This document shows, piece after piece, positions 56,472-64,000 of a stretch of DNA of 64,000 bases. The notes below the pieces were generated by a model that was not told where the DNA came from, did not search any database, and was given only the letters and a program-made list of their open reading frames with translations. The position numbers and the translations under genes were made by a program. Positions within the stretch are counted from its first letter, which is position 1. Each line of letters opens with the position of its first letter. Source of the DNA: a phage; the sequence record QB031383.1; one strand, written 5' to 3'.

Positions 56472-56550
56472 TGGAGGCGGGAATCGGATTTGAACCGATG
56501 ATCTCCAGCATATGAAACTGGCGAGGACGACCAGACTCCTCTATCCCGCT
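56472..56550 (-). tRNA. tRNA-Met (anticodon CAT)
   Basis: Hand-folded cloverleaf: T-arm ATCGG-TTCAAAT-CCGAT, anticodon loop TTCATAT, CCA encoded; 1-72 position appears mismatched (A/C). Confidence 0.55.
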
Positions 56551-56552
56551 AT

Positions 56553-56627
56553 TATGTATCCCGTGCTGGATTCGAACCAGCATCACAATAAGCTGTGGAA
56601 CTCTTATCCTGTAAGTCTAACGGGAAA
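56553..56627 (-). ncRNA. tRNA-like element, anticodon arm not resolvable (possible pseudo-tRNA)
   Basis: Canonical T-arm GCTGG-TTCGAAT-CCAGC and 6-bp acceptor, packed between two tRNAs, but no standard D/anticodon arms. Confidence 0.3.
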
Positions 56628-56628
56628 C

Positions 56629-56702
56629 TGGTTGTTTCGACAAGAATCGAACTTGTGTCTCACGATTATCAGTCGTGGGTTCTACCATTGAACTACGAAA
56701 CA
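56629..56702 (-). tRNA. tRNA-Ile (anticodon GAT)
   Basis: Acceptor TGTTTCG/CGAAACA, D-arm GTTC-AATGGTA-GAAC, anticodon stem CACGA/TCGTG with loop CTGATAA, T-loop TTCGATT, CCA encoded. Confidence 0.7.
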
Positions 56703-56708
56703 TTTGAT

Positions 56709-56785
56709 TGGTCGGAATTGCAGGATTCGAACCTGCGACCCTACGCTCCCAAAGCGTATGCTCTACCAAACTGAGCTAAATTCCG
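56709..56785 (-). tRNA. tRNA-Pro (anticodon TGG)
   Basis: Acceptor CGGAATT/AATTCCG, D-arm GCTC-AGTTTGGTA-GAGC, anticodon loop TTTGGGA, T-arm GCAGG-TTCGAAT-CCTGC, CCA encoded. Confidence 0.75.
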
Positions 56786-56790
56786 TTATA

Positions 56791-56866
56791 TGGCTGGTCT
56801 GTCTGGATTTGAACCAAACCTACGACAGTCAAAGTGTCGTGTGCTACCGGACTACACTACAAACCA
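56791..56866 (-). tRNA. tRNA-Gln (anticodon TTG)
   Basis: Acceptor with U1-A72, anticodon stem CGACA/TGTCG with loop CTTTGAC, T-loop TTCAAAT, discriminator G, CCA encoded. Confidence 0.7.
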
Positions 56867-56964
56867 ATAAATCATTTAATGAAGGGCAACCAGAAGAGGT
56901 GTGAGAGAAGGAGAAAACCATGAGTAAAAGAGAAAGTTTTCTGGCAACCCTTTATTAAATAATT

Positions 56965-57038
56965 TGGAGCGTTCTACGAGGATCGAACTCGTGCCGCCGA
57001 CTTGGAAGGACGGAATGCTACCGCTACACCAAGAACGC
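56965..57038 (-). tRNA. tRNA-Gly (anticodon TCC)
   Basis: Acceptor GCGTTCT/AGAACGC, anticodon loop CTTCCAA, T-arm ACGAG-TTCGATC-CTCGT, discriminator U, CCA encoded. Confidence 0.6.
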
Positions 57039-57049
57039 CCTACATCTTT

Positions 57050-57079
57050 ACTATACTACATTTTACTATTGGTTGTCAA
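57050..57079 (-). promoter_or_regulatory. promoter-like element (aCTATTGACAa, -10-like TATAGT) directly upstream of tRNA-Gly
   Basis: Minus strand TTGACA-18-TATAGT; one of four copies of the same -35-containing motif. Confidence 0.5.
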
Positions 57080-57352
57080 TAGTTTTATTGAGCGGGACAG
57101 TGACGAGTATCCCATTGGGTGACTAGCCCTACGTTCGGTAAGCTAACTTAAAATAATACAAAACCAAAGTCAAATATTATTCTTCGTTGCTGTCGATGGG
57201 AGAGCCGCTTCTTCTTTTGCCCCATCCAACCCTACTCCGGTCAAGTTTCAGGTAACTCTTTTTGTGATCAACACAATACTAAGAACACTGTCTTTCGAGC
57301 AGACCTTGTGCACAGGATACGACGATCAATCACAGTGCTCTTAATGTTGTGT

Positions 57353-57427
57353 TGGTGCTCCCACTCTGAATCGAACAGAGATCCACGGATTACAAAACCG
57401 TTGTAATAGCCATTATACTATAGGAGC
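57353..57427 (-). tRNA. tRNA-Thr (anticodon TGT)
   Basis: Acceptor GCTCCTA/TGGGAGC (one G-U), anticodon loop TTTGTAA, T-arm CTCTG-TTCGATT-CAGAG, CCA encoded. Confidence 0.6.
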
Positions 57428-57433
57428 AAAGCT

Positions 57434-57511
57434 GGGACTCGGCAGGATTCGATACCTGCAATTCCAGAAGCCTCTTGGCGACTGGGGGGTTTACCTTAAC
57501 TCTACAAGTCC
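57434..57511 (-). ncRNA. tRNA-like element with 8-nt T-loop and no recognisable anticodon arm (possible pseudo-tRNA)
   Basis: 7-bp acceptor GGACTTG/CGAGTCC and T-arm GCAGG-TATCGAAT-CCTGC; internal region forms a long imperfect hairpin instead. Confidence 0.3.
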
Positions 57512-57518
57512 ATAATTC

Positions 57519-57604
57519 TGGCGATGAGTATAGGATTTGAACCTATATCGTTCTTTCGAACACGGATTAACAGTCCGCCGCTTAAACCATTCAGCCAACT
57601 CATC
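57519..57604 (-). tRNA. tRNA-Asn (anticodon GTT) with an unusually long variable arm
   Basis: Perfect acceptor GATGAGT/ACTCATC, Asn-type anticodon arm GCGGA-CTGTTAA-TCCGT, discriminator G, CCA encoded; 15-nt variable region GTTC-GAAA-GAAC. Confidence 0.55.
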
Positions 57605-57610
57605 TTAATT

Positions 57611-57698
57611 TGGTGGTGAGTGATGGAGTCGAACCACCCGAATCGCAATGATAACAGATTTACAGTCTGCCCCGCTACCCCTACGGAATTAACTCACC
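57611..57698 (-). tRNA. tRNA-Tyr (anticodon GTA), type II
   Basis: Acceptor GGTGAGT/ACTCACC, anticodon arm GCAGA-CTGTAAA-TCTGT, long variable arm, T-loop TTCGACT, CCA encoded. Confidence 0.65.
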
Positions 57699-57828
57699 TA
57701 AATACTAATATTTAAATTCTTTTTAAAATAGCCAGTGTTCACACCACTAACTATGAGTTATCGGTAAAGTGGTTACCGCCACTTGCCGAAGATTTACTCT
57801 GCTAAAGTAAGCTATATTAAAAAGAACT

Positions 57829-57914
57829 TGGCGGTAGATGTAGGACTCGAACCTACACGCCGTTTCCGACTACAGTTTAGCAAACTGTCGTGGCTACCAT
57901 TTCACCAATCTACC
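57829..57914 (-). tRNA. tRNA-Ser (anticodon GCT), type II
   Basis: Acceptor GGTAGAT/ATCTACC, anticodon stem ACAGT/ACTGT with loop TTGCTAA, long variable arm, T-arm GTAGG-TTCGAGT-CCTAC, CCA encoded. Confidence 0.7.
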
Positions 57915-57918
57915 AATC

Positions 57919-58009
57919 TGGCGGAAGGAGGGAGAGTCGAACTCCCAAGGCTCTTTCAAGCTCGGCGGTTTTCAAGACCGTTTTCGTCGCCACGTCGATT
58001 TGCCCTTCC
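57919..58009 (-). tRNA. tRNA-Ser (anticodon TGA), type II
   Basis: Acceptor GGAAGGG/TCCTTCC, anticodon loop CTTGAAA, long variable arm, T-arm GGGAG-TTCGACT-CTCCC, CCA encoded; D-arm atypical. Confidence 0.55.
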
Positions 58010-58018
58010 ATACTTATA

Positions 58019-58047
58019 ATCTAACATAAAATAATGTTAGTTGTCAA
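58019..58047 (-). promoter_or_regulatory. promoter-like element (aCTATTGACAa, -10-like TTAGAT) upstream of tRNA-Ser
   Basis: Minus strand TTGACA-17-TTAGAT; shares the TATG-TTAG block with the 58605 copy. Confidence 0.5.
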
Positions 58048-58243
58048 TAGTTTTTTAAAACATTTTACCATGAATGGTGACTCCACCAACCCCCGTTCTC
58101 AACGAACGGTGCTCTTCGAGCATTTATGTCTTCTAATATAACCGTGGCCTTTGTTTATAATGTCTGACATACTTGCCTCATTCTCTGCCACCATGATCAG
58201 TAGTGGGTTCAAATCACTTGAGCTAATTCATGTTAAAATGTTC

Positions 58244-58318
58244 TGGTGTCTTTACAAGGAATCGAACCTTGACTAAGAGTTTAGAAGACTCCTGTGCTAT
58301 CCATTACACCATAAAGAC
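58244..58318 (-). tRNA. tRNA-Arg (anticodon TCT)
   Basis: Acceptor GTCTTTA/TAAAGAC, D-arm GTGT-AATGGATA-GCAC, anticodon loop CTTCTAA, T-arm CAAGG-TTCGATT-CCTTG, CCA encoded. Confidence 0.7.
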
Positions 58319-58320
58319 GT

Positions 58321-58395
58321 TGGTGGCCCTGGCTGGTTTCGATCCAGCTACCTATCGGTTATGAGCCGACAGCTCTCCCATTGAGCTACAGGGCC
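58321..58395 (-). tRNA. tRNA with CAT anticodon (Met or lysidine-type Ile2)
   Basis: Acceptor GGCCCTG/CAGGGCC, D-arm GCTC-AATGGGA-GAGC, anticodon loop CTCATAA, non-canonical T-loop ATCGAAA, CCA encoded. Confidence 0.6.
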
Positions 58396-58604
58396 ATAAA
58401 TGTGGTAACAGAGACGCTGACGATTGTAGAGAACCGCTACATTCTCTAAGACCAAGCCCAACTTTCAGCGTAAAAGTTCTTGAGCCGAGACTATTCCTTT
58501 TCCTCTTTGGTAGCTAACCTCTGAAGAAGTAGTCTCTAACACTACCGCAGTGCAAGCCCCTCTTAACAAAAGTCAACGACCCTGTTACCACACTTGATGA
58601 ACGT

Positions 58605-58633
58605 ATCCTAACATATGAAGGATACGTTTGTCA
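58605..58633 (-). promoter_or_regulatory. promoter-like element (aCTATTGACAa, -10-like TTAGGA) at the upstream end of the tRNA array
   Basis: Minus strand TTGACA-17-TTAGGA; would transcribe the structured spacer and the tRNAs. Confidence 0.45.
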
Positions 58634-58641
58634 ATAGTTAT

Positions 58642-58890
58642 TTAAGCATATTCTGCTACTTCTTCACTATCTTTCTTTTCCAGAAGAGCAACAACCAAAG
58701 CTTCTGCGTTAAAAGTATTAATTTCAAGATCCATCTCTCGCATCAGAGCCAAGAAATCAATAACTTTAACATCTTTAGTGATTACAATAGAAGTTGTACC
58801 ATTGTTTTCAGATGTGTATTTTTCTGGATGGAAAAGAAAAACTGCATTGCCGTTACCATCTTCAAACACGTGTTTTTCTAATAGAGACAT
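58642..58890 (-). CDS. hypothetical protein
   Basis: Start set at the internal ATG preceded by AGGAGGAAC (82 aa) rather than the longer track ORF. Confidence 0.4.
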   Translation of the reverse strand: MSLLEKHVFEDGNGNAVFLFHPEKYTSENNGTTSIVITKDVKVIDFLALMREMDLEINTFNAEALVVALLEKKDSEEVAEYA

Positions 58891-58898
58891 TGTTCCTC

Positions 58899-59150
58899 CT
58901 AATCTGTTAGTTGTTCGTCCTCTACCAAGTTTGACACGAGAACGTCTGTTATACATTGATGCTGATAAACCCTTTCGGGACTATCATCAAAAGCCAAACC
59001 TGTGCAAATAGAACAGAGGTCTGATTCCTTGATGACTCCATTTTTATCACGTCTGGAGTGGTTTGTCAAATGCCTATTACAAGCACGGCACCTAAAATAA
59101 AAGCTATTTTGCATATATCCTTCGAACCCCAAATGGGGAGTGATCGGCAT
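58899..59150 (-). CDS. hypothetical Zn-finger protein
   Basis: 83 aa; CRACN...CSIC cysteine pairs. Confidence 0.4.
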   Translation of the reverse strand: MPITPHLGFEGYMQNSFYFRCRACNRHLTNHSRRDKNGVIKESDLCSICTGLAFDDSPERVYQHQCITDVLVSNLVEDEQLTD

Positions 59151-59187
59151 CTCCTCACTTCTAGTTTAGCACGAAGGATATCTTAAG

Positions 59188-59373
59188 TCAACTAGGAATA
59201 ATTTTATCCTTTTTGGTTTCATAACCAGTCCAATCTAAATCCTCCCAGCCTTCATCATCGTCTAACACATTGTCATCATCATAAGATGCAATGTTATAAA
59301 TAGAACGTGGATTACAAGACATACAATCTTTAATAGGCACATGATGCCATTTGCACGGATTCTCGCTAATCAT
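59188..59373 (-). CDS. hypothetical small acidic protein
   Basis: 61 aa; GGAGGTG RBS; first gene of the leftward unit leaving the divergent region. Confidence 0.45.
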   Translation of the reverse strand: MISENPCKWHHVPIKDCMSCNPRSIYNIASYDDDNVLDDDEGWEDLDWTGYETKKDKIIPS

Positions 59374-59405
59374 TGCACACCTCCATTCTTGTTAAGATGT
59401 TCCGT

Positions 59406-59434
59406 ACTGTACTTCATACTGATCTATAGATCAA
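59406..59434 (-). promoter_or_regulatory. leftward promoter candidate (TTGATC-17-TACAGT) in the divergent control region
   Basis: Read on the reverse complement; spacer contains the palindrome GATCTATAGATC. Confidence 0.45.
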
Positions 59435-59781
59435 GTATTATTTATAATAATTTATTATTTTATTTTTAATTGATAGAAGTTGATCTGTACGTACCAGTTC
59501 TGATACACTGTACCTGTTTGTTAGATCTAATAATTATTTATTATTAATATTTAATAATTATTAATCTAGTACGGAGTACAGTACTTGAGTACAGAGTACT
59601 ACATCAACAACCTAAAACCTTAACTCGCTGCGCTCGTTAATAGATTTCTAGGGTAGCATACTTCGAACACAAAAGTCAAGAGTTTTATTAAAAATTATTT
59701 TCTGTGTGCAAAAACCTTGCTTAAACAGGTAGCAATAGTATAGCCTATAACATAAGCTTCATAAGAGGCTCGTAGAGCAAG

Positions 59782-59810
59782 TTTACTTACTAGGTAAGGT
59801 GATTTATCAT
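59782..59810 (+). promoter_or_regulatory. rightward promoter candidate (TTTACT-17-TATCAT)
   Basis: Upstream of the first plus-strand small gene (RBS AGGAGG, ATG 59855). Confidence 0.35.
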
Positions 59811-59854
59811 CTTATATATAAAAAGTGAGTCAGAGACGCGTTTAGGAGGCTAGA

Positions 59855-60178
59855 ATGAGATTTACAAGACAAGAGGTAGTTGTGCTGGACGAAGCAATGA
59901 CAATGATCGTCTTTTACTATGAGGATATCTTCTGTGCAGCATATCATTTAAATGACATTCAGATTGAATGGCAGCAGATAGCATTCCTGTTGGACAAGAG
60001 TAATCATTTGGATGGCTTTGAGTATTTGGAGTGGGATGGTGCAAAGGAAGTTAAAATTGTAGGGTTAAATCACGATCAGATTGTTGACATGCAATGTAAG
60101 TTGTGTCATTATCAGTTCTCAAACAAAGTCAAACTCGAAAGGCAATTGGAGGTGGTTAAAGATGATAGCACTAATTAG
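59855..60178 (+). CDS. hypothetical protein
   Basis: 107 aa ORF with TAGGAGG RBS. Confidence 0.45.
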   Translation: MRFTRQEVVVLDEAMTMIVFYYEDIFCAAYHLNDIQIEWQQIAFLLDKSNHLDGFEYLEWDGAKEVKIVGLNHDQIVDMQCKLCHYQFSNKVKLERQLEVVKDDSTN

Positions 60179-60274
60179 TGAGAATCCAGTCCTGACAACA
60201 ATTGTTCTGATTTTTGCCATGTGTGTGGTTCACGATATTCTGGTAAGTTATTTTGACAACAAAGGAGGTAAGAA

Positions 60275-60469
60275 ATGAAAGACGTTATTCAAATGGTATT
60301 CCGTGTAACTCTAGATGGTATACACGTTGTTAAAGGCACACAGAACTACACAGAAGCGAAAGAATACTTCTTAGAGTGGATTGATACACTGAAGACACAA
60401 GATGTGTCCTACAGCCGTGTTACGCTTACTGGCGACCATACCCCAATCATGGAGTACGTAAAGAAATGA
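60275..60469 (+). CDS. hypothetical protein
   Basis: 64 aa; AAAGGAGG RBS. Confidence 0.4.
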   Translation: MKDVIQMVFRVTLDGIHVVKGTQNYTEAKEYFLEWIDTLKTQDVSYSRVTLTGDHTPIMEYVKK

Positions 60470-60705
60470 GCAACTATCCAATTACAGGCGTAACCTATTC
60501 TTGTGTATCAAAAGGTGGTTTATATACAGTAGTGGAATTTCCAAAACCTGCCGGAATATCTAAAGTGTTTGATCCTGTGGTTATCTATGAAGATCTTAGA
60601 ACAGGTCAACGTTACTGGAGATTTGTGAATGACTTTTTAGATCGTATGGAGGTAGTAAGTGGCGAAAACACCGAAGAAGTTATCAAAGCCAAAGAACGTT
60701 ACTAA
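60466..60705 (+). CDS. hypothetical protein
   Basis: 79 aa; ATG overlaps upstream stop (ATGA). Confidence 0.4.
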   Translation: MSNYPITGVTYSCVSKGGLYTVVEFPKPAGISKVFDPVVIYEDLRTGQRYWRFVNDFLDRMEVVSGENTEEVIKAKERY

Positions 60706-61012
60706 GAAACCGAAAAACGAGGTTCTCAAAGTAGCTAAATCAGTTCCTAAGAAAGATAAATTTGATACGGAGGCATTCGTCTTTGACACACCAATCGAGA
60801 AGATTGAAGAAGCGTTGCAACGTCTTGAGGAGCAGGAGGCAGATCCAATGGCTGAACCACTCACGGCAGACCAAATTTATTGGTGGGGAATATGGACTTT
60901 GCAACTGCCAGAAGCAAAAAGAAGAGGAATGACTTCAGTTCCTACTTGTGCAAAAGAAGCGGCTGTGTTAGGTTTGTATGAGAAATCTAAAAAGAGGAGC
61001 AAAAAGAAATGA
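60659..61012 (+). CDS. hypothetical lysine-rich protein
   Basis: GTG start after GGAGG; KKxK-rich N- and C-termini (possible nucleic-acid binding). Confidence 0.4.
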   Translation: MAKTPKKLSKPKNVTKKPKNEVLKVAKSVPKKDKFDTEAFVFDTPIEKIEEALQRLEEQEADPMAEPLTADQIYWWGIWTLQLPEAKRRGMTSVPTCAKEAAVLGLYEKSKKRSKKK

Positions 61013-61290
61013 TCAAGACTTTTCTGAAGTGTGTAAAAGCAACAGATAATGAGTGGTACTCTGGATTATTCACTGCTGGCAAGAAATACGAGATCCTCAA
61101 CGGGACAGGCAAGAAGTTTTCTCTCGTTGTAAACGATGAAGGCACGAAGCAAATGGTATTTGCTGAAAGTTCTGTTTATGGTATTTTTGAAGTAGTGCAA
61201 GAAGGCTCTCCAATGATTCTGGAGTATCATGGCACTAATAAACCATATACTGCTATGGATGTTATCAACAACAAGAGGAATGCAAAATGA
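61009..61290 (+). CDS. hypothetical protein
   Basis: 93 aa; overlapping start/stop. Confidence 0.45.
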   Translation: MIKTFLKCVKATDNEWYSGLFTAGKKYEILNGTGKKFSLVVNDEGTKQMVFAESSVYGIFEVVQEGSPMILEYHGTNKPYTAMDVINNKRNAK

Positions 61291-61469
61291 TTTTACTATA
61301 TTCCGGTAAGGCAAAATACATGCAAGGTGTTAAACGTGTAGAGGTTACTAAGACAGTAACAATCGGGAAATCTTTTATCGTTTATTATTTCCTTGTTAAT
61401 GGGAAGGAGTATGCTGTAGCAAAGACCTTGGTTGATAAGGGTAAAACGTGGAAAGTGGAGGCACTATGA
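61287..61469 (+). CDS. hypothetical protein
   Basis: 60 aa; coupled to neighbours. Confidence 0.35.
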   Translation: MILLYSGKAKYMQGVKRVEVTKTVTIGKSFIVYYFLVNGKEYAVAKTLVDKGKTWKVEAL

Positions 61470-61672
61470 TCCCTATAGCTGGGTGGGTGGTATTGGCAAC
61501 ACTTAATGGGAATGTTACTGTGGAGACTAAAACCATCTTCAAAGCACCAGAAGATTGCTATAACTCCTTGGTAACTTGGCCTCGTGATGAGGATGATAAG
61601 TCAGAGTATCAGTGTTTTTACATTGAGGGTAATCCTGTAGAATTTGAGGTTAAAGTGAAGGAGGAAAAATGA
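61448..61672 (+). CDS. hypothetical protein
   Basis: 74 aa; GGAGG RBS. Confidence 0.4.
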   Translation: MESGGTMIPIAGWVVLATLNGNVTVETKTIFKAPEDCYNSLVTWPRDEDDKSEYQCFYIEGNPVEFEVKVKEEK

Positions 61673-62139
61673 GAATTAAAGTAACTAAAGCTTACGATGA
61701 TAACCCGAAGTTTATCTCTTTGAATAAGAGTTATGGTGTAGAAAACGGCGATGAGTTCGAGGTTATCGATCTTTTTGAGGATCACGGGTATATTGTCAAA
61801 GCCCCAATCACAGAGCAGGCTATTATCATCTTACGCACAGAGGCTGTTGAGGTAGGTTCTGATGAGCCTCAATATGACAGCCCATACATGACAGAGTGGA
61901 TCGTAGCTGTGGATGTTGGAGGTATGGTTTCTGTACTGGAAGCTCCTAATCTCCATCCTGGTTTTACAGAGAACGGTAAGACAGCTTTGGATTATGGGTT
62001 GCCAGAAGATGTTGAGAATACACCGCCAGGTATGTACCGTTGGATTTGCTCTTTCCATGAAGAGAAGGATTGGGAATCAGGACTTGTTGATGATTGGCAT
62101 TTTGAAGTGGAAAGTTCTTTTTTGATCATGCCAGCTTAA
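61669..62139 (+). CDS. hypothetical protein
   Basis: 156 aa; AAGGAGGAAAA RBS. Confidence 0.45.
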   Translation: MRIKVTKAYDDNPKFISLNKSYGVENGDEFEVIDLFEDHGYIVKAPITEQAIIILRTEAVEVGSDEPQYDSPYMTEWIVAVDVGGMVSVLEAPNLHPGFTENGKTALDYGLPEDVENTPPGMYRWICSFHEEKDWESGLVDDWHFEVESSFLIMPA

Positions 62140-62149
62140 AGGAGGTTAT

Positions 62150-62494
62150 ATGAAAGTTTGGATAGATGATATGCGGAACCCAGCCGACTATGGACAGGAA
62201 GATGCAATTTGGTTTAAAACGTCACAAGAAGCTATGGCCTTTCTCAATGATCCTGCTAAACTGTATCGAAGAGTAACCGAGTGGTCTTTTGACAATGATT
62301 TAGGTATGGAGTCAGACCAAGATGGGTATGATGTTTTCCTGCACCTGGAAGAACTTCTGGCGTTTGGTAAACCTTGCTTTGGTTCACCTACCATTTTCGT
62401 GCATACTTCTAATCCCGCCGCTGGGGATAAATTCATGCTTGCAAAAGAATCCATGCAGCGTTATGGTATTAAAATGATTCGTGTGCACTACTAA
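62150..62494 (+). CDS. hypothetical protein
   Basis: 114 aa; AAGGAGG RBS. Confidence 0.45.
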   Translation: MKVWIDDMRNPADYGQEDAIWFKTSQEAMAFLNDPAKLYRRVTEWSFDNDLGMESDQDGYDVFLHLEELLAFGKPCFGSPTIFVHTSNPAAGDKFMLAKESMQRYGIKMIRVHY

Positions 62495-62653
62495 GGAGAG
62501 AACATGCATCATTCGGTTTGGTCGGAACAAGAAGAGGACGAAGGTTACTTTATCTACAGAGAAGAAGAGGATTGGCCCGACACAAGCAATGATCTTTTAC
62601 TTCCAGATACTAGTTTTTTCGAGGATAATTTAAGAGAGGAGGATTAGGAAACA

Positions 62654-63010
62654 ATGAGTGGTATTGAAAACAACATTTGTTACCAACCTCTTACCTGGAT
62701 GGGTGAGGGTCATTATGCGCAACGTGTTATCGTCTGTGCTGCAAATAAGTATATTTTGAATAATGGTGAAGAATTAATTATTCCTTGTGTTCGACATGCA
62801 AATCCTGTACTATATGCACAGTTAAACGTGTTGAAAGAAGCAGGTGTAATCAACAAAACTTTGTGCACACCAGATAATCAAGGCTTTATCGATCAGTATT
62901 ACAATTGGTGGAGTCGTGCGGATGCTTACATCATCGCGGAAAATGCTGACCAGATCGACCATGAGCGTAATGGTCACGACCATGAATTATTTAGCGAGGG
63001 ATTATACTAA
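62654..63010 (+). CDS. hypothetical protein
   Basis: 118 aa; GAGAGGAGGA RBS; several Cys/His. Confidence 0.45.
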   Translation: MSGIENNICYQPLTWMGEGHYAQRVIVCAANKYILNNGEELIIPCVRHANPVLYAQLNVLKEAGVINKTLCTPDNQGFIDQYYNWWSRADAYIIAENADQIDHERNGHDHELFSEGLY

Positions 63011-63561
63011 TGTTTATTACAAGCGATTTGCATTTTATGCATAAACGTATTCGAGAGTTTGCTCCTGAATATCGTCCGTGGGAAGATATGGACCACATGA
63101 CAGAAGCCTTGATCGAAGCATGGAACAAATGTGCTACTACTCCTGGTGTTAAGATGTGGCATTTGGGCGACTTCTGTTTCGGAACTGAAGAAGATACCCG
63201 TAAAATTGCTTCCCGTCTCCAAGGAGATATCACCTACTGTGTTGGGAACCATGACTACAGCAAACACCGAGAAGTGCTTGCAGAGTATGGAGAAGTGGTG
63301 TATTATGACGAAGTGAAATATCAGAAGCTGTTCTTCGTCTTAAGCCATTACCCTATGGCCTCCTGGAATAAACAAGGTCGTGGATCAATCATGCTACACG
63401 GGCATTCCCACGGATCTTTCCCTGATGAAGCTTATGGTAAAATGTTAGATGTGGGTTGGGATGCACACGGAAAAATCTTGCATTTTGATGAGATAATTTC
63501 TATGATGAGTAAACGAGATATCGTGACTGTAGACCATCACAAAATAATCAAAGGAGAGTAA
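63010..63561 (+). CDS. metallophosphoesterase (calcineurin-like phosphatase family)
   Basis: 183 aa; ordered metal-binding motifs DLHF.H, GDFCFG, GNHD, HGHSHG. Confidence 0.65.
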   Translation: MFITSDLHFMHKRIREFAPEYRPWEDMDHMTEALIEAWNKCATTPGVKMWHLGDFCFGTEEDTRKIASRLQGDITYCVGNHDYSKHREVLAEYGEVVYYDEVKYQKLFFVLSHYPMASWNKQGRGSIMLHGHSHGSFPDEAYGKMLDVGWDAHGKILHFDEIISMMSKRDIVTVDHHKIIKGE

Positions 63562-63562
63562 T

Positions 63563-64000
63563 GTGGCTAAATTTAATTGCGACGATTTGGTTGAAAAAGG
63601 TTTAGTTCATAAGAAAACATATAAAGAAGGAGAGTATTCTGGTCTATCTGTTCTTAAGTATAAGAACAAAGTTTTCTGGGATAACTTATGGAGCATTGAT
63701 TCTCGTCTTCTAGAATGTCGAGGAATCGTTGTTGATGCGGATGACAATGTTGTTATTTGGCCTTTCACTAAGATTTTTAATCGTTTTGAGAATGGCACAG
63801 ACCTACCAGAGGATGAATTTGTAGATGTGGTTCGTAAAGTAAATGGTTTTATGGCCTCTGTGGGTGTATATAAAGGTCAACTTATTGTATCGACAACAGG
63901 AAGCCTTGAATCAGATTTTGCAAGTATTGCAAAGAATCGTATTGTTTCAGAGTGTGATGACATAGAACATTTCATCAAATGGACAGAGAGTGCAAAAGCA
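63563..64000 (+). CDS. RNA ligase, T4 Rnl1-like (N-terminal part; continues beyond window)
   Basis: GTG start after AAGGAGAG; LECRGI block and motif I-like lysine KVNG (T4 Rnl1 has KEDG), STTGS block; open to the window end. Confidence 0.55.
   Translation, partial: MAKFNCDDLVEKGLVHKKTYKEGEYSGLSVLKYKNKVFWDNLWSIDSRLLECRGIVVDADDNVVIWPFTKIFNRFENGTDLPEDEFVDVVRKVNGFMASVGVYKGQLIVSTTGSLESDFASIAKNRIVSECDDIEHFIKWTESAKA

Follow-up and report, generated by a model that had tools for sequence, protein, structure and literature searches.

A predicted split RNA end-healing and end-sealing module in phAPEC8-like coliphages

Genes at the locus

Here, we describe the genes at the right-hand end of a 64,000-nucleotide stretch of phage DNA (sequence record QB031383.1; hereafter the window), where a metallophosphoesterase (MPE) gene is followed by the front part of an Rnl1-family RNA ligase gene. 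A reading made from the sequence alone had recognised this pair and suggested a tRNA healing-and-sealing module; as an observation this is confirmed, and the pair was read correctly in outline. The window is assigned to Phapecoctavirus, as a phAPEC8-like coliphage, and we propose that its end probably holds the front half of a split module for RNA end healing and end sealing.

The Escherichia phage ECO340P1 (OP172791.1) is 99.4% identical to the window over positions 62600-64000 and, over 63000-64000, aligns with it with 8 substitutions and no indels at the nucleotide level; it was therefore used (as locus L002), together with the RefSeq genome of ESCO5 (locus L001), to read the sequence past the window end. 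Altogether, 122 phage records are at least 80% identical to the window over 62600-64000. Nearly all of them are ~150-kb Stephanstirmvirinae myoviruses of E. coli (Phapecoctavirus, Justusliebigvirus), and in 113 of the 122 the MPE-ligase-kinase block is contiguous at a coverage of at least 80%. The genes and motifs concerned are as follows.

63010..63561, + strand: stand-alone binuclear MPE of the aq_1665-like clade, 183 amino acids (open reading frame and motifs); proposed 3'-end healing enzyme
63563..64000, + strand: Rnl1-family ATP-dependent RNA ligase, 5' part (codons 1-146 of 310), GTG start (translation)
63710..63727, + strand: LECRGI block of the ligase, aligning to the T4 LECRGI; R53, the counterpart of T4 Rnl1 Arg54, and G54 are invariant
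63836..63847, + strand: ligase motif I, K92-V-N-G (adenylylated lysine by homology), aligning to the T4 motif I KEDG
63890..63904, + strand: STTGS block of the ligase, aligning to the T4 Rnl1 block
L002:10897-11301, past the window end: P-loop kinase, 134 amino acids, directly after the ligase stop codon with no intergenic gap

From 62654 onward the genes abut or overlap. The MPE start codon overlaps the stop codon of the upstream open reading frame (TAATG), and the ligase GTG at 63563 lies one base past the MPE stop codon, with a GGAG at 63553-63556. The ligase frame is open to base 64000 and the gene extends ~495 nucleotides beyond it; the ligase is absent from the list of open reading frames because its frame runs off the window. 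A scan of 58300-64000 for terminators found no terminator-like site between the + strand genes, and a promoter scan of the same interval found promoter-like sites at chance level and is uninformative. Abutting genes with no terminator are consistent with co-transcription without proving it.

An Rnl1-family RNA ligase

In the sequence-only reading, three blocks at the N-terminus of the ligase had been aligned by eye with T4 RNA ligase 1 (Rnl1). All three (LECRGI, the motif I lysine in KVNG, and STTGS) are present and are aligned to T4 Rnl1 by a profile of 25 ligase homologs, which matches the T4 enzyme (PDB 2C5U) with an E-value of 3.7e-10 and sets K92 on the T4 motif I lysine. K92, N94, and G95 are invariant among these homologs. 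The alignment of the blocks is far beyond chance. A search of the PDB with the single ligase sequence gave no match, and the 25-sequence profile was required.

The full-length ligase of ECO340P1 has 310 amino acids and matches Pfam RNA_lig_T4_1 (PF09511) with 56.6 bits (cut-off 28.3; E 4e-15) over profile positions 1-227 of 227. It also has the remaining nucleotidyltransferase motifs of the family, whose loss would have undone the identification as Rnl1-like: motifs III (E151), IV (E222-G223), and V (K238/K240), as read in ECO340P1, are invariant and correspond to T4 E159, E227-G228, and K240/K242. Across the ligase family, R53, K70, F72, K92, G95, E151, E222-G223, K238, and K240 are invariant or nearly so, and they align with T4 Rnl1 Arg54, Lys75, Phe77, Lys99, Gly102, Glu159, Glu227-Gly228, Lys240, and Lys242. 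Mutagenesis of T4 Rnl1 has identified these residues, including Arg54, Lys75, and Phe77, and also Lys119, as essential.

An AlphaFold model of the ligase (predicted local distance difference test, pLDDT, 91.4) was compared with known structures using Foldseek. It most resembles Trl1 ligase domains and T4 Rnl1 (E ~1e-13; TMq, the template modelling score on the query, 0.60-0.67), followed by Rnl3 (E 3e-10 or weaker), Rnl2 (6.5e-7 or weaker), and Rnl5 (1e-5 or weaker). The ligase is classified as a member of the Rnl1 family and, by its low score against the T4 RnlA equivalog model (see below), not as an ortholog of T4 RnlA.

T4 Rnl1 is also gp63, which has a second activity in tail-fibre attachment, and one might ask whether the phage ligase is mainly an attachment factor of this kind whose neighbours are irrelevant. 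The label of PHROG 562, "RNA ligase and tail fiber protein attachment catalyst", and several GenBank names point in this direction, having been transferred from T4. We regard this as highly improbable, given that the gene lies in the early/nucleotide-metabolism block away from the tail genes, that the catalytic residues of the ligase are all invariant across the family, that its C-terminal region is much shorter than that of T4, and that it is fused to a kinase in several lineages (see below), including cellular genomes that have no tail fibres.

A Pnk-type kinase just past the window

The sequence-only reading had noted that no kinase is visible in the window. This is correct for the window itself, but the gene that follows the ligase encodes a Pnk-type kinase; hence the pathway is not kinase-less, and the window merely stops 0.5 kb short of it. 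The protein has a match to Pfam AAA_33 and a weaker one to PHROG 505 "polynucleotide kinase". When a 23-sequence profile of the kinase is compared with the PDB, polynucleotide kinases are the best full-domain matches: T4 Pnk (1LY1; 6e-8), Capnocytophaga gingivalis Pnkp1 (1e-7), mammalian PNKP (2e-6), and the kinase of Clostridium thermocellum Pnkp (CthPnk, 4GP7; 3.5e-6). The P-loop (G9-x-x-G12-x-G14-K15-S-T) and D33 are invariant, the latter falling on the catalytic Asp35 of T4 Pnk. Thus P-loop, catalytic Asp, and best profile matches place the protein in the polynucleotide 5'-hydroxyl kinase clade. Its 134 residues give only AAA_33 and related P-loop matches, with no HAD DxDxT phosphatase domain.

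A binuclear metallophosphoesterase

The MPE matches Pfam Metallophos (PF00149) with 24.9 bits (cut-off 21.5; E 3e-5) and PHROG 547 "phosphoesterase" with an E-value of 6.5e-56. Across 36 aligned homologs, the most distant at 35% identity, D6, H8, G53-D54, G79-N80-H81, H113, G131-H132, and H134 are invariant, so that the full binuclear MPE motif set is represented (DxH, GD, GNH(D/E), H, GH, GHxH). The gene pair was thus correctly named in the sequence-only reading as a calcineurin-type MPE followed by an Rnl1-like ligase. The fold model of the MPE is of high confidence (pLDDT 95.4) and its nearest structures are aq_1665, LpxH, YfcE, and MJ0936. It has no specific affinity, in sequence or in structure, to the CthPnkp phosphatase (4J6O) or to lambda phosphatase, the latter being a distant structural match. 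The phage MPE is therefore no homolog-by-descent of a known RNA-healing MPE; it is a different branch of the superfamily in the same slot. For the aq_1665-type MPE, more than 500 phage homologs are among the matches listed.

Two other identities were considered. PPP protein phosphatases carry GDxVDRG and GNHE signatures; the phage protein reads GDFCFG and GNHD, and protein phosphatases are only distant structural matches, so that the possibility of a protein phosphatase, which had been named as a way in which the module could fail, was rejected. The ligase-associated DNA-damage nuclease PdeM was rejected as well, the match scoring 16.8 bits against a cut-off of 150 (E 0.003).

What, then, might the MPE do? 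The phosphatase module of bacterial Pnkp is an MPE that dephosphorylates RNA 2',3'-cyclic phosphate ends, and both CthPnkp and lambda phosphatase have 2',3'-cyclic phosphodiesterase activity on nucleotide substrates (PMC2190708, PMC3675462). We propose an RNA 2',3'-cyclic phosphodiesterase/3'-phosphatase activity for the phage MPE, the support for which is gene linkage together with the analogy to CthPnkp; by that analogy, such chemistry would be plausible for the aq_1665-like clade. The sequence-only reading had set an MPE in the place of the T4-type healing enzyme. This is borne out in that the phage has a separate MPE and no HAD domain; as a departure from precedent it does not stand, since healing by an MPE is already known from bacterial Pnkp (PMC2190708, PMC3675462).

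Linkage, gene order, and fusions

To what extent do the three genes travel together? Our ligase-side survey covered 80 diverse viral contigs with ligase relatives of 40-87% identity, in which module genes were sought with hidden Markov models on six-frame open reading frames. An MPE was found within 6 kb of the ligase in 65 of the 80 loci and a kinase in 73, the main orders being MPE-ligase-kinase and kinase-ligase-MPE. When these loci are taken together with a reciprocal survey of 80 phage loci of the MPE family (32-95% identity), all six possible orders of MPE, ligase, and kinase are found.

The genes are also fused. A kinase-ligase fusion protein of ~430 amino acids is encoded in 12 viral loci (Pfam-confirmed in L068). 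In Cardiobacteriaceae (L173, L190, L200, L202), a kinase-Rnl1 fusion is followed by a gene for an MPE of the phage (aq_1665-like) type; L173, the only one of these loci whose neighbours were scanned, has ordinary cellular genes around it (MscS channel, EamA transporter). In Leptolyngbyaceae, a chromosomal protein of ~710 amino acids combines AAA_33, Metallophos, and RNA_lig_T4_1 domains in that order. It is represented by the following locus.

L189:3768-5906: triple fusion of Leptolyngbya sp. PCC 7375, with ~27 other cyanobacterial loci (L174-L205)

The kinase domain of the triple fusion matches CthPnkp 4GP6 (2e-11) and its phosphatase domain matches 4J6O (6.5e-26), with no Hen1 gene seen within 5 kb. 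It appears to have a Pnkp-like architecture and is uncharacterised. Shuffled gene order with retained proximity, along with double and triple fusions, is the standard signature of a single pathway, and it provides strong comparative evidence for joint action of MPE, ligase, and kinase. The heal-and-seal function suggested by the sequence-only reading thus gains the backing of comparative genomics (linkage, gene orders, and fusions), and the predicted pathway is complete once the neighbouring kinase is counted.

Two side observations concern the fusions. Viral contigs with the kinase-ligase fusion also encode a transfer-messenger RNA (tag AANDANYGDYALAA) ~5 kb downstream (L067:6273-6675, L068:12177-12579, L070:10399-10801), and in PCC 7375 an RtcB gene lies 1.6 kb downstream of the triple fusion.

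A different partner for the kinase and the MPE is also encoded nearby.

L002:12056-13171, ~2.5 kb past the window end: ATP-dependent DNA ligase, a few genes downstream of the RNA ligase and kinase

Might the kinase and the MPE heal DNA ends (5'-OH, 3'-phosphate) for this DNA ligase, four genes downstream? Here and in many relatives, 0.8-2.4 kb separate the DNA ligase from the kinase or kinase-ligase gene upstream of it, and T4 Pnkp also acts on DNA ends. In addition, the MPE has its weak match to PdeM (E 0.003) and finds a P. putida nuclease MPE among its structural neighbours. Yet the fusions join the kinase with RNA ligase and not with DNA ligase, the PdeM score is far below its cut-off, and the ligase fold is that of Rnl1/Trl1, whose characterised members act on RNA. 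DNA end healing is thus a very unlikely role.

The sequence-only reading had further linked the module to the phage's own tRNA set. Ten tRNA genes (Met x2, Ile, Pro, Gln, Gly, Thr, Asn, Ser, Arg) do lie clustered at 56472-58395, but on the - strand, 5.2 kb upstream of the module and divergent from the early-gene block that holds it. Among 60 related ligase loci, a tRNA gene within 6 kb occurs in just 14; with this, and with the cluster on the other strand, a tie to the phage tRNAs is unsupported.

cREC and other neighbouring genes

Three further + strand genes lie immediately upstream of the MPE.

62150..62494, + strand: cREC (cyclic-phosphate-processing receiver-like) protein, 114 amino acids, three genes upstream of the MPE
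62504..62647, + strand: open reading frame of 47 amino acids, co-linear with the module (PHROG 18323, E 9e-35)
62654..63010, + strand: T4 Y16D family protein (PF26092), 118 amino acids (PHROG 839, E 4e-47)

The cREC gene product matches Pfam cREC_REC (PF20274) with 62.4 bits (cut-off 27; E 6.5e-17), and its D6, D7, D48, D50, S87, and K94 are invariant among 14 homologs. In relatives the gene either precedes the MPE or separates the ligase from the kinase. Iyer, Anantharaman, Krishnan, Burroughs, and Aravind (2021; PMC7824862) described cREC as a receiver-like domain with predicted cyclic phosphate processing that is operonically linked to RNA ligases, and noted that calcineurin-like domains occasionally supply the phosphatase in phage RNA repair. 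Based on homology and gene position, cREC is a likely fourth component of the module, with a predicted accessory role in 2',3'-cyclic phosphate processing. The sequence-only interpretation, which we find partly supported, had not seen this member. In the ESCO5 RefSeq record the cREC ortholog is labelled "putative RNA ligase and tail attachment protein", apparently through a slip in annotation.

The 47-residue open reading frame is confined to the closest relatives. PF26092 is found on 120 of 120 homologs of the 118-residue protein among the matches listed; this Y16D-like gene adjoins the module in few relatives, and its link to it is therefore weak. A role as a nuclease or repair factor was rejected for a family that has no assigned function and is rarely module-linked, and the label "anti-restriction nuclease" given to the 118-residue protein in several GenBank records has no support.

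Elsewhere in the early-gene block, ESCO5 has an inserted HNH endonuclease gene (L001:6845-7450, against window ~61000) that is absent from the window and from ECO340P1. Among more distant relatives, genes for NAD+ salvage (NAPRTase, PRPP synthetase-like) flank the module in L003, L007, L008, and L011 (ligase 49-54% identity), with a Macro domain gene also in L003 and L008 and a SIR2 gene in L007; none of the NAD+ salvage, Macro, or SIR2 genes has a homolog within the window. Finally, five GenBank records named as Campylobacter phages (Campylobacter jejuni) match the region, including MG065650.1 and MG065645.1. The host label looks doubtful, with B15 being 98.9% and A145 ~88% identical in the two records listed.

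Proposed pathway and its alternatives

We put a probability of about 0.7 on the reading that this phAPEC8-like coliphage has a split module for healing and sealing RNA ends, the front half of which closes the window, and which most likely serves to repair RNAs cut by host defence nucleases. The module would run in the order cREC, 47-residue open reading frame, Y16D-like gene, MPE, Rnl1-type ligase, and, just past the window, Pnk-type 5'-kinase. The domain identities, catalytic residues, conserved linkage, and fusions are observed here. At a cut RNA, the 134-residue P-loop kinase would convert the 5'-OH into a 5'-phosphate, while the MPE, of the Mn2+/Ni2+ type, would open the cyclic phosphate and remove the remaining phosphate to leave a 3'-OH, possibly assisted by cREC, which may alternatively take a subset of ends. 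The ligase, adenylylated on K92, would then transfer AMP to the 5'-phosphate and seal the break. We infer how each step proceeds chemically, that the substrate is RNA and not DNA, and that tRNA is the target. Anticodon loops of tRNAs are possible targets, as in T4, although the short C-terminus of the ligase makes the range of substrates uncertain.

A number of findings weigh against this reading. Motifs III-V of the ligase and the kinase itself lie beyond the window edge and are attributed to this phage from near-identical genomes. Where T4 Rnl1 has the essential Lys119, the phage ligases have an invariant Thr (T112), the sole mismatch among the aligned T4 residues, and the ligase does not reach the T4 RnlA equivalog level (NCBIfam TIGR02308; 23.2 bits against 242). 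After motif V there are ~66 residues, compared with ~125 in T4 Rnl1. The C-terminal domain of T4 Rnl1 confers tRNA specificity, and with so short a region tRNA targeting therefore cannot be assumed. The MPE is part of the uncharacterised aq_1665 clade and stands outside the Pnkp/lambda-phosphatase clade. Nor is its family dedicated to the module: in the reciprocal survey a ligase is nearby in 33 of 80 loci and only a kinase in 9, leaving 38 in which neither was found within 6 kb. The neighbours of the MPE in those loci are mixed (DnaB, polymerases, primase, one RtcB), with no common partner emerging. Our literature searches found no experimental work on phAPEC8-like RNA ligases or module proteins.

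Some of these findings would fit a reading in which the ligase and kinase are the sole repair pair and the MPE is an unrelated neighbour in a tightly packed early region. It might then be a phosphodiesterase for second messengers or small phosphoesters, or a protein phosphatase. As well as the 38 loci with heterogeneous neighbours, one may cite in its favour that phage fusions join kinase and ligase but never the aq_1665-like MPE, and that the nearest structures, aq_1665 (function unassigned), LpxH, YfcE, and MJ0936, are small-molecule or generic phosphodiesterases. We nevertheless consider it unlikely. Whichever of the six gene orders is used, and down to ~40% ligase identity, the MPE stays near the ligase and kinase; in Cardiobacteriaceae chromosomes, where no phage early region is involved, it adjoins the kinase-ligase fusion; and the functional slot that it would fill is taken by an MPE domain both in the cyanobacterial triple fusion and in CthPnkp. 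Against the protein phosphatase version in particular, the PPP signatures are absent and lambda phosphatase is structurally distant.

A further alternative, which we hold to be quite unlikely, is that the aq_1665-type MPE is dedicated to RNA 2',3'-end healing and forms with cREC a route apart from those of T4 and Pnkp. One version would be Trl1-like: cREC or the MPE would leave a 2'-phosphate, the ligase would seal the ends, and the host KptA/Tpt1 would remove the 2'-phosphate with NAD+. This is hinted at because the fold likeness of the ligase to Trl1 equals that to T4 Rnl1, and because NAD+ salvage and Macro genes flank the module of distant relatives. On the other side, those genes are absent from the window and sequence profiles find T4 Rnl1 only. 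If true, such a route would give bacterial KptA a natural substrate and would explain the flanking NAD+ salvage and Macro genes.

Meaning and comparison with known systems

Many bacterial defence systems cut tRNA or mRNA, and phage RNA repair, a classic counter-measure, has been studied almost only in T4. The module described here is found in more than 100 sequenced coliphage genomes, including an easily manipulated phage of the BASEL collection. If active, it would be a second and compositionally different model of phage RNA repair. The aq_1665 MPEs, an orphan family, would gain a function, the predicted activity of cREC could be put to the test, and compact stand-alone kinase, phosphatase, and ligase enzymes might become available for RNA work.

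With T4, whose Pnkp and Rnl1 repair tRNA-Lys cleaved by PrrC, the module has in common a phage-encoded Rnl1-family ligase and a Pnk-clade P-loop kinase. It differs in that the phosphatase of T4, a domain of the HAD/DxDxT type, is part of the kinase polypeptide (PMC3592404), whereas the phage module has a bare 134-residue kinase and a separate MPE, and in that the ligase has 310 rather than 374 amino acids. With the bacterial Pnkp-Hen1 system (Clostridium thermocellum Pnkp) it shares the three activities, an MPE as 2',3'-phosphoesterase, and a Pnk-type kinase. Unlike bacterial Pnkp, however, the phage module consists of three separate small proteins, with a phosphatase from the aq_1665-like MPE clade; and in ESCO5, ECO340P1, and Bas60, the annotated genes up to 9 kb to either side include no methyltransferase that could be a Hen1 partner.

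The Trl1 system of fungi and plants combines ligase, kinase, and 2H domains. Structurally, the phage ligase model matches Trl1 (9QW7, 6N0V, 6N67) as well as it matches T4 Rnl1, and motif I of Trl1 is KxNG, like that of the phage ligase. In addition, the phage kinase profile matches the stand-alone kinase of Rhizopus (9D8A; 3.5e-7) from the split Trl1 of Mucorales. At the level of sequence profiles, by contrast, the phage ligase detects T4 Rnl1 and not Trl1. Trl1 also uses a 2H phosphodiesterase, leaves and requires a 2'-phosphate, and then needs Tpt1, while no 2H or Tpt1 gene was seen at the phage locus.

Among cellular proteins, the Leptolyngbyaceae fusion is closest to the phage ligase (30-35% identity) and has kinase, MPE, and ligase domains in one polypeptide, so linking all three activities; the MPE of that fusion is of the CthPnkp type and that of the phage of the aq_1665 type. 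The namesake of the latter, aq_1665 of Aquifex aeolicus (PDB 1XM7), is a cellular structural-genomics MPE with no known partner or substrate, compared with which a conserved C-terminal D-H-H tail is a feature of the phage protein.

As for the neighbourhood as a whole, Iyer and colleagues (2021; PMC7824862) predicted that cREC, in neighbourhoods with RNA ligases, resolves 2',3'-cyclic ends, and the window carries exactly such a neighbourhood. Their study was computational and dealt with jumbo phages by its own genome-size criterion; the phage here has a genome of 150 kb. Moreover, the BASEL phage Bas60 (PaulScherrer, MZ501100.1) already has its trio labelled, independently of our analysis, "putative phosphoesterase", "RNA ligase", and "polynucleotide kinase", which speaks for the main reading. 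Thus the logic of the pathway, healing by an MPE, and the names given to the genes have already been anticipated in the literature or in the Bas60 annotation, and no concept is overturned. New here are the MPE clade, the shuffling of gene order, and the series of fusions, along with the combination of three small proteins, a short Rnl1, and cREC.

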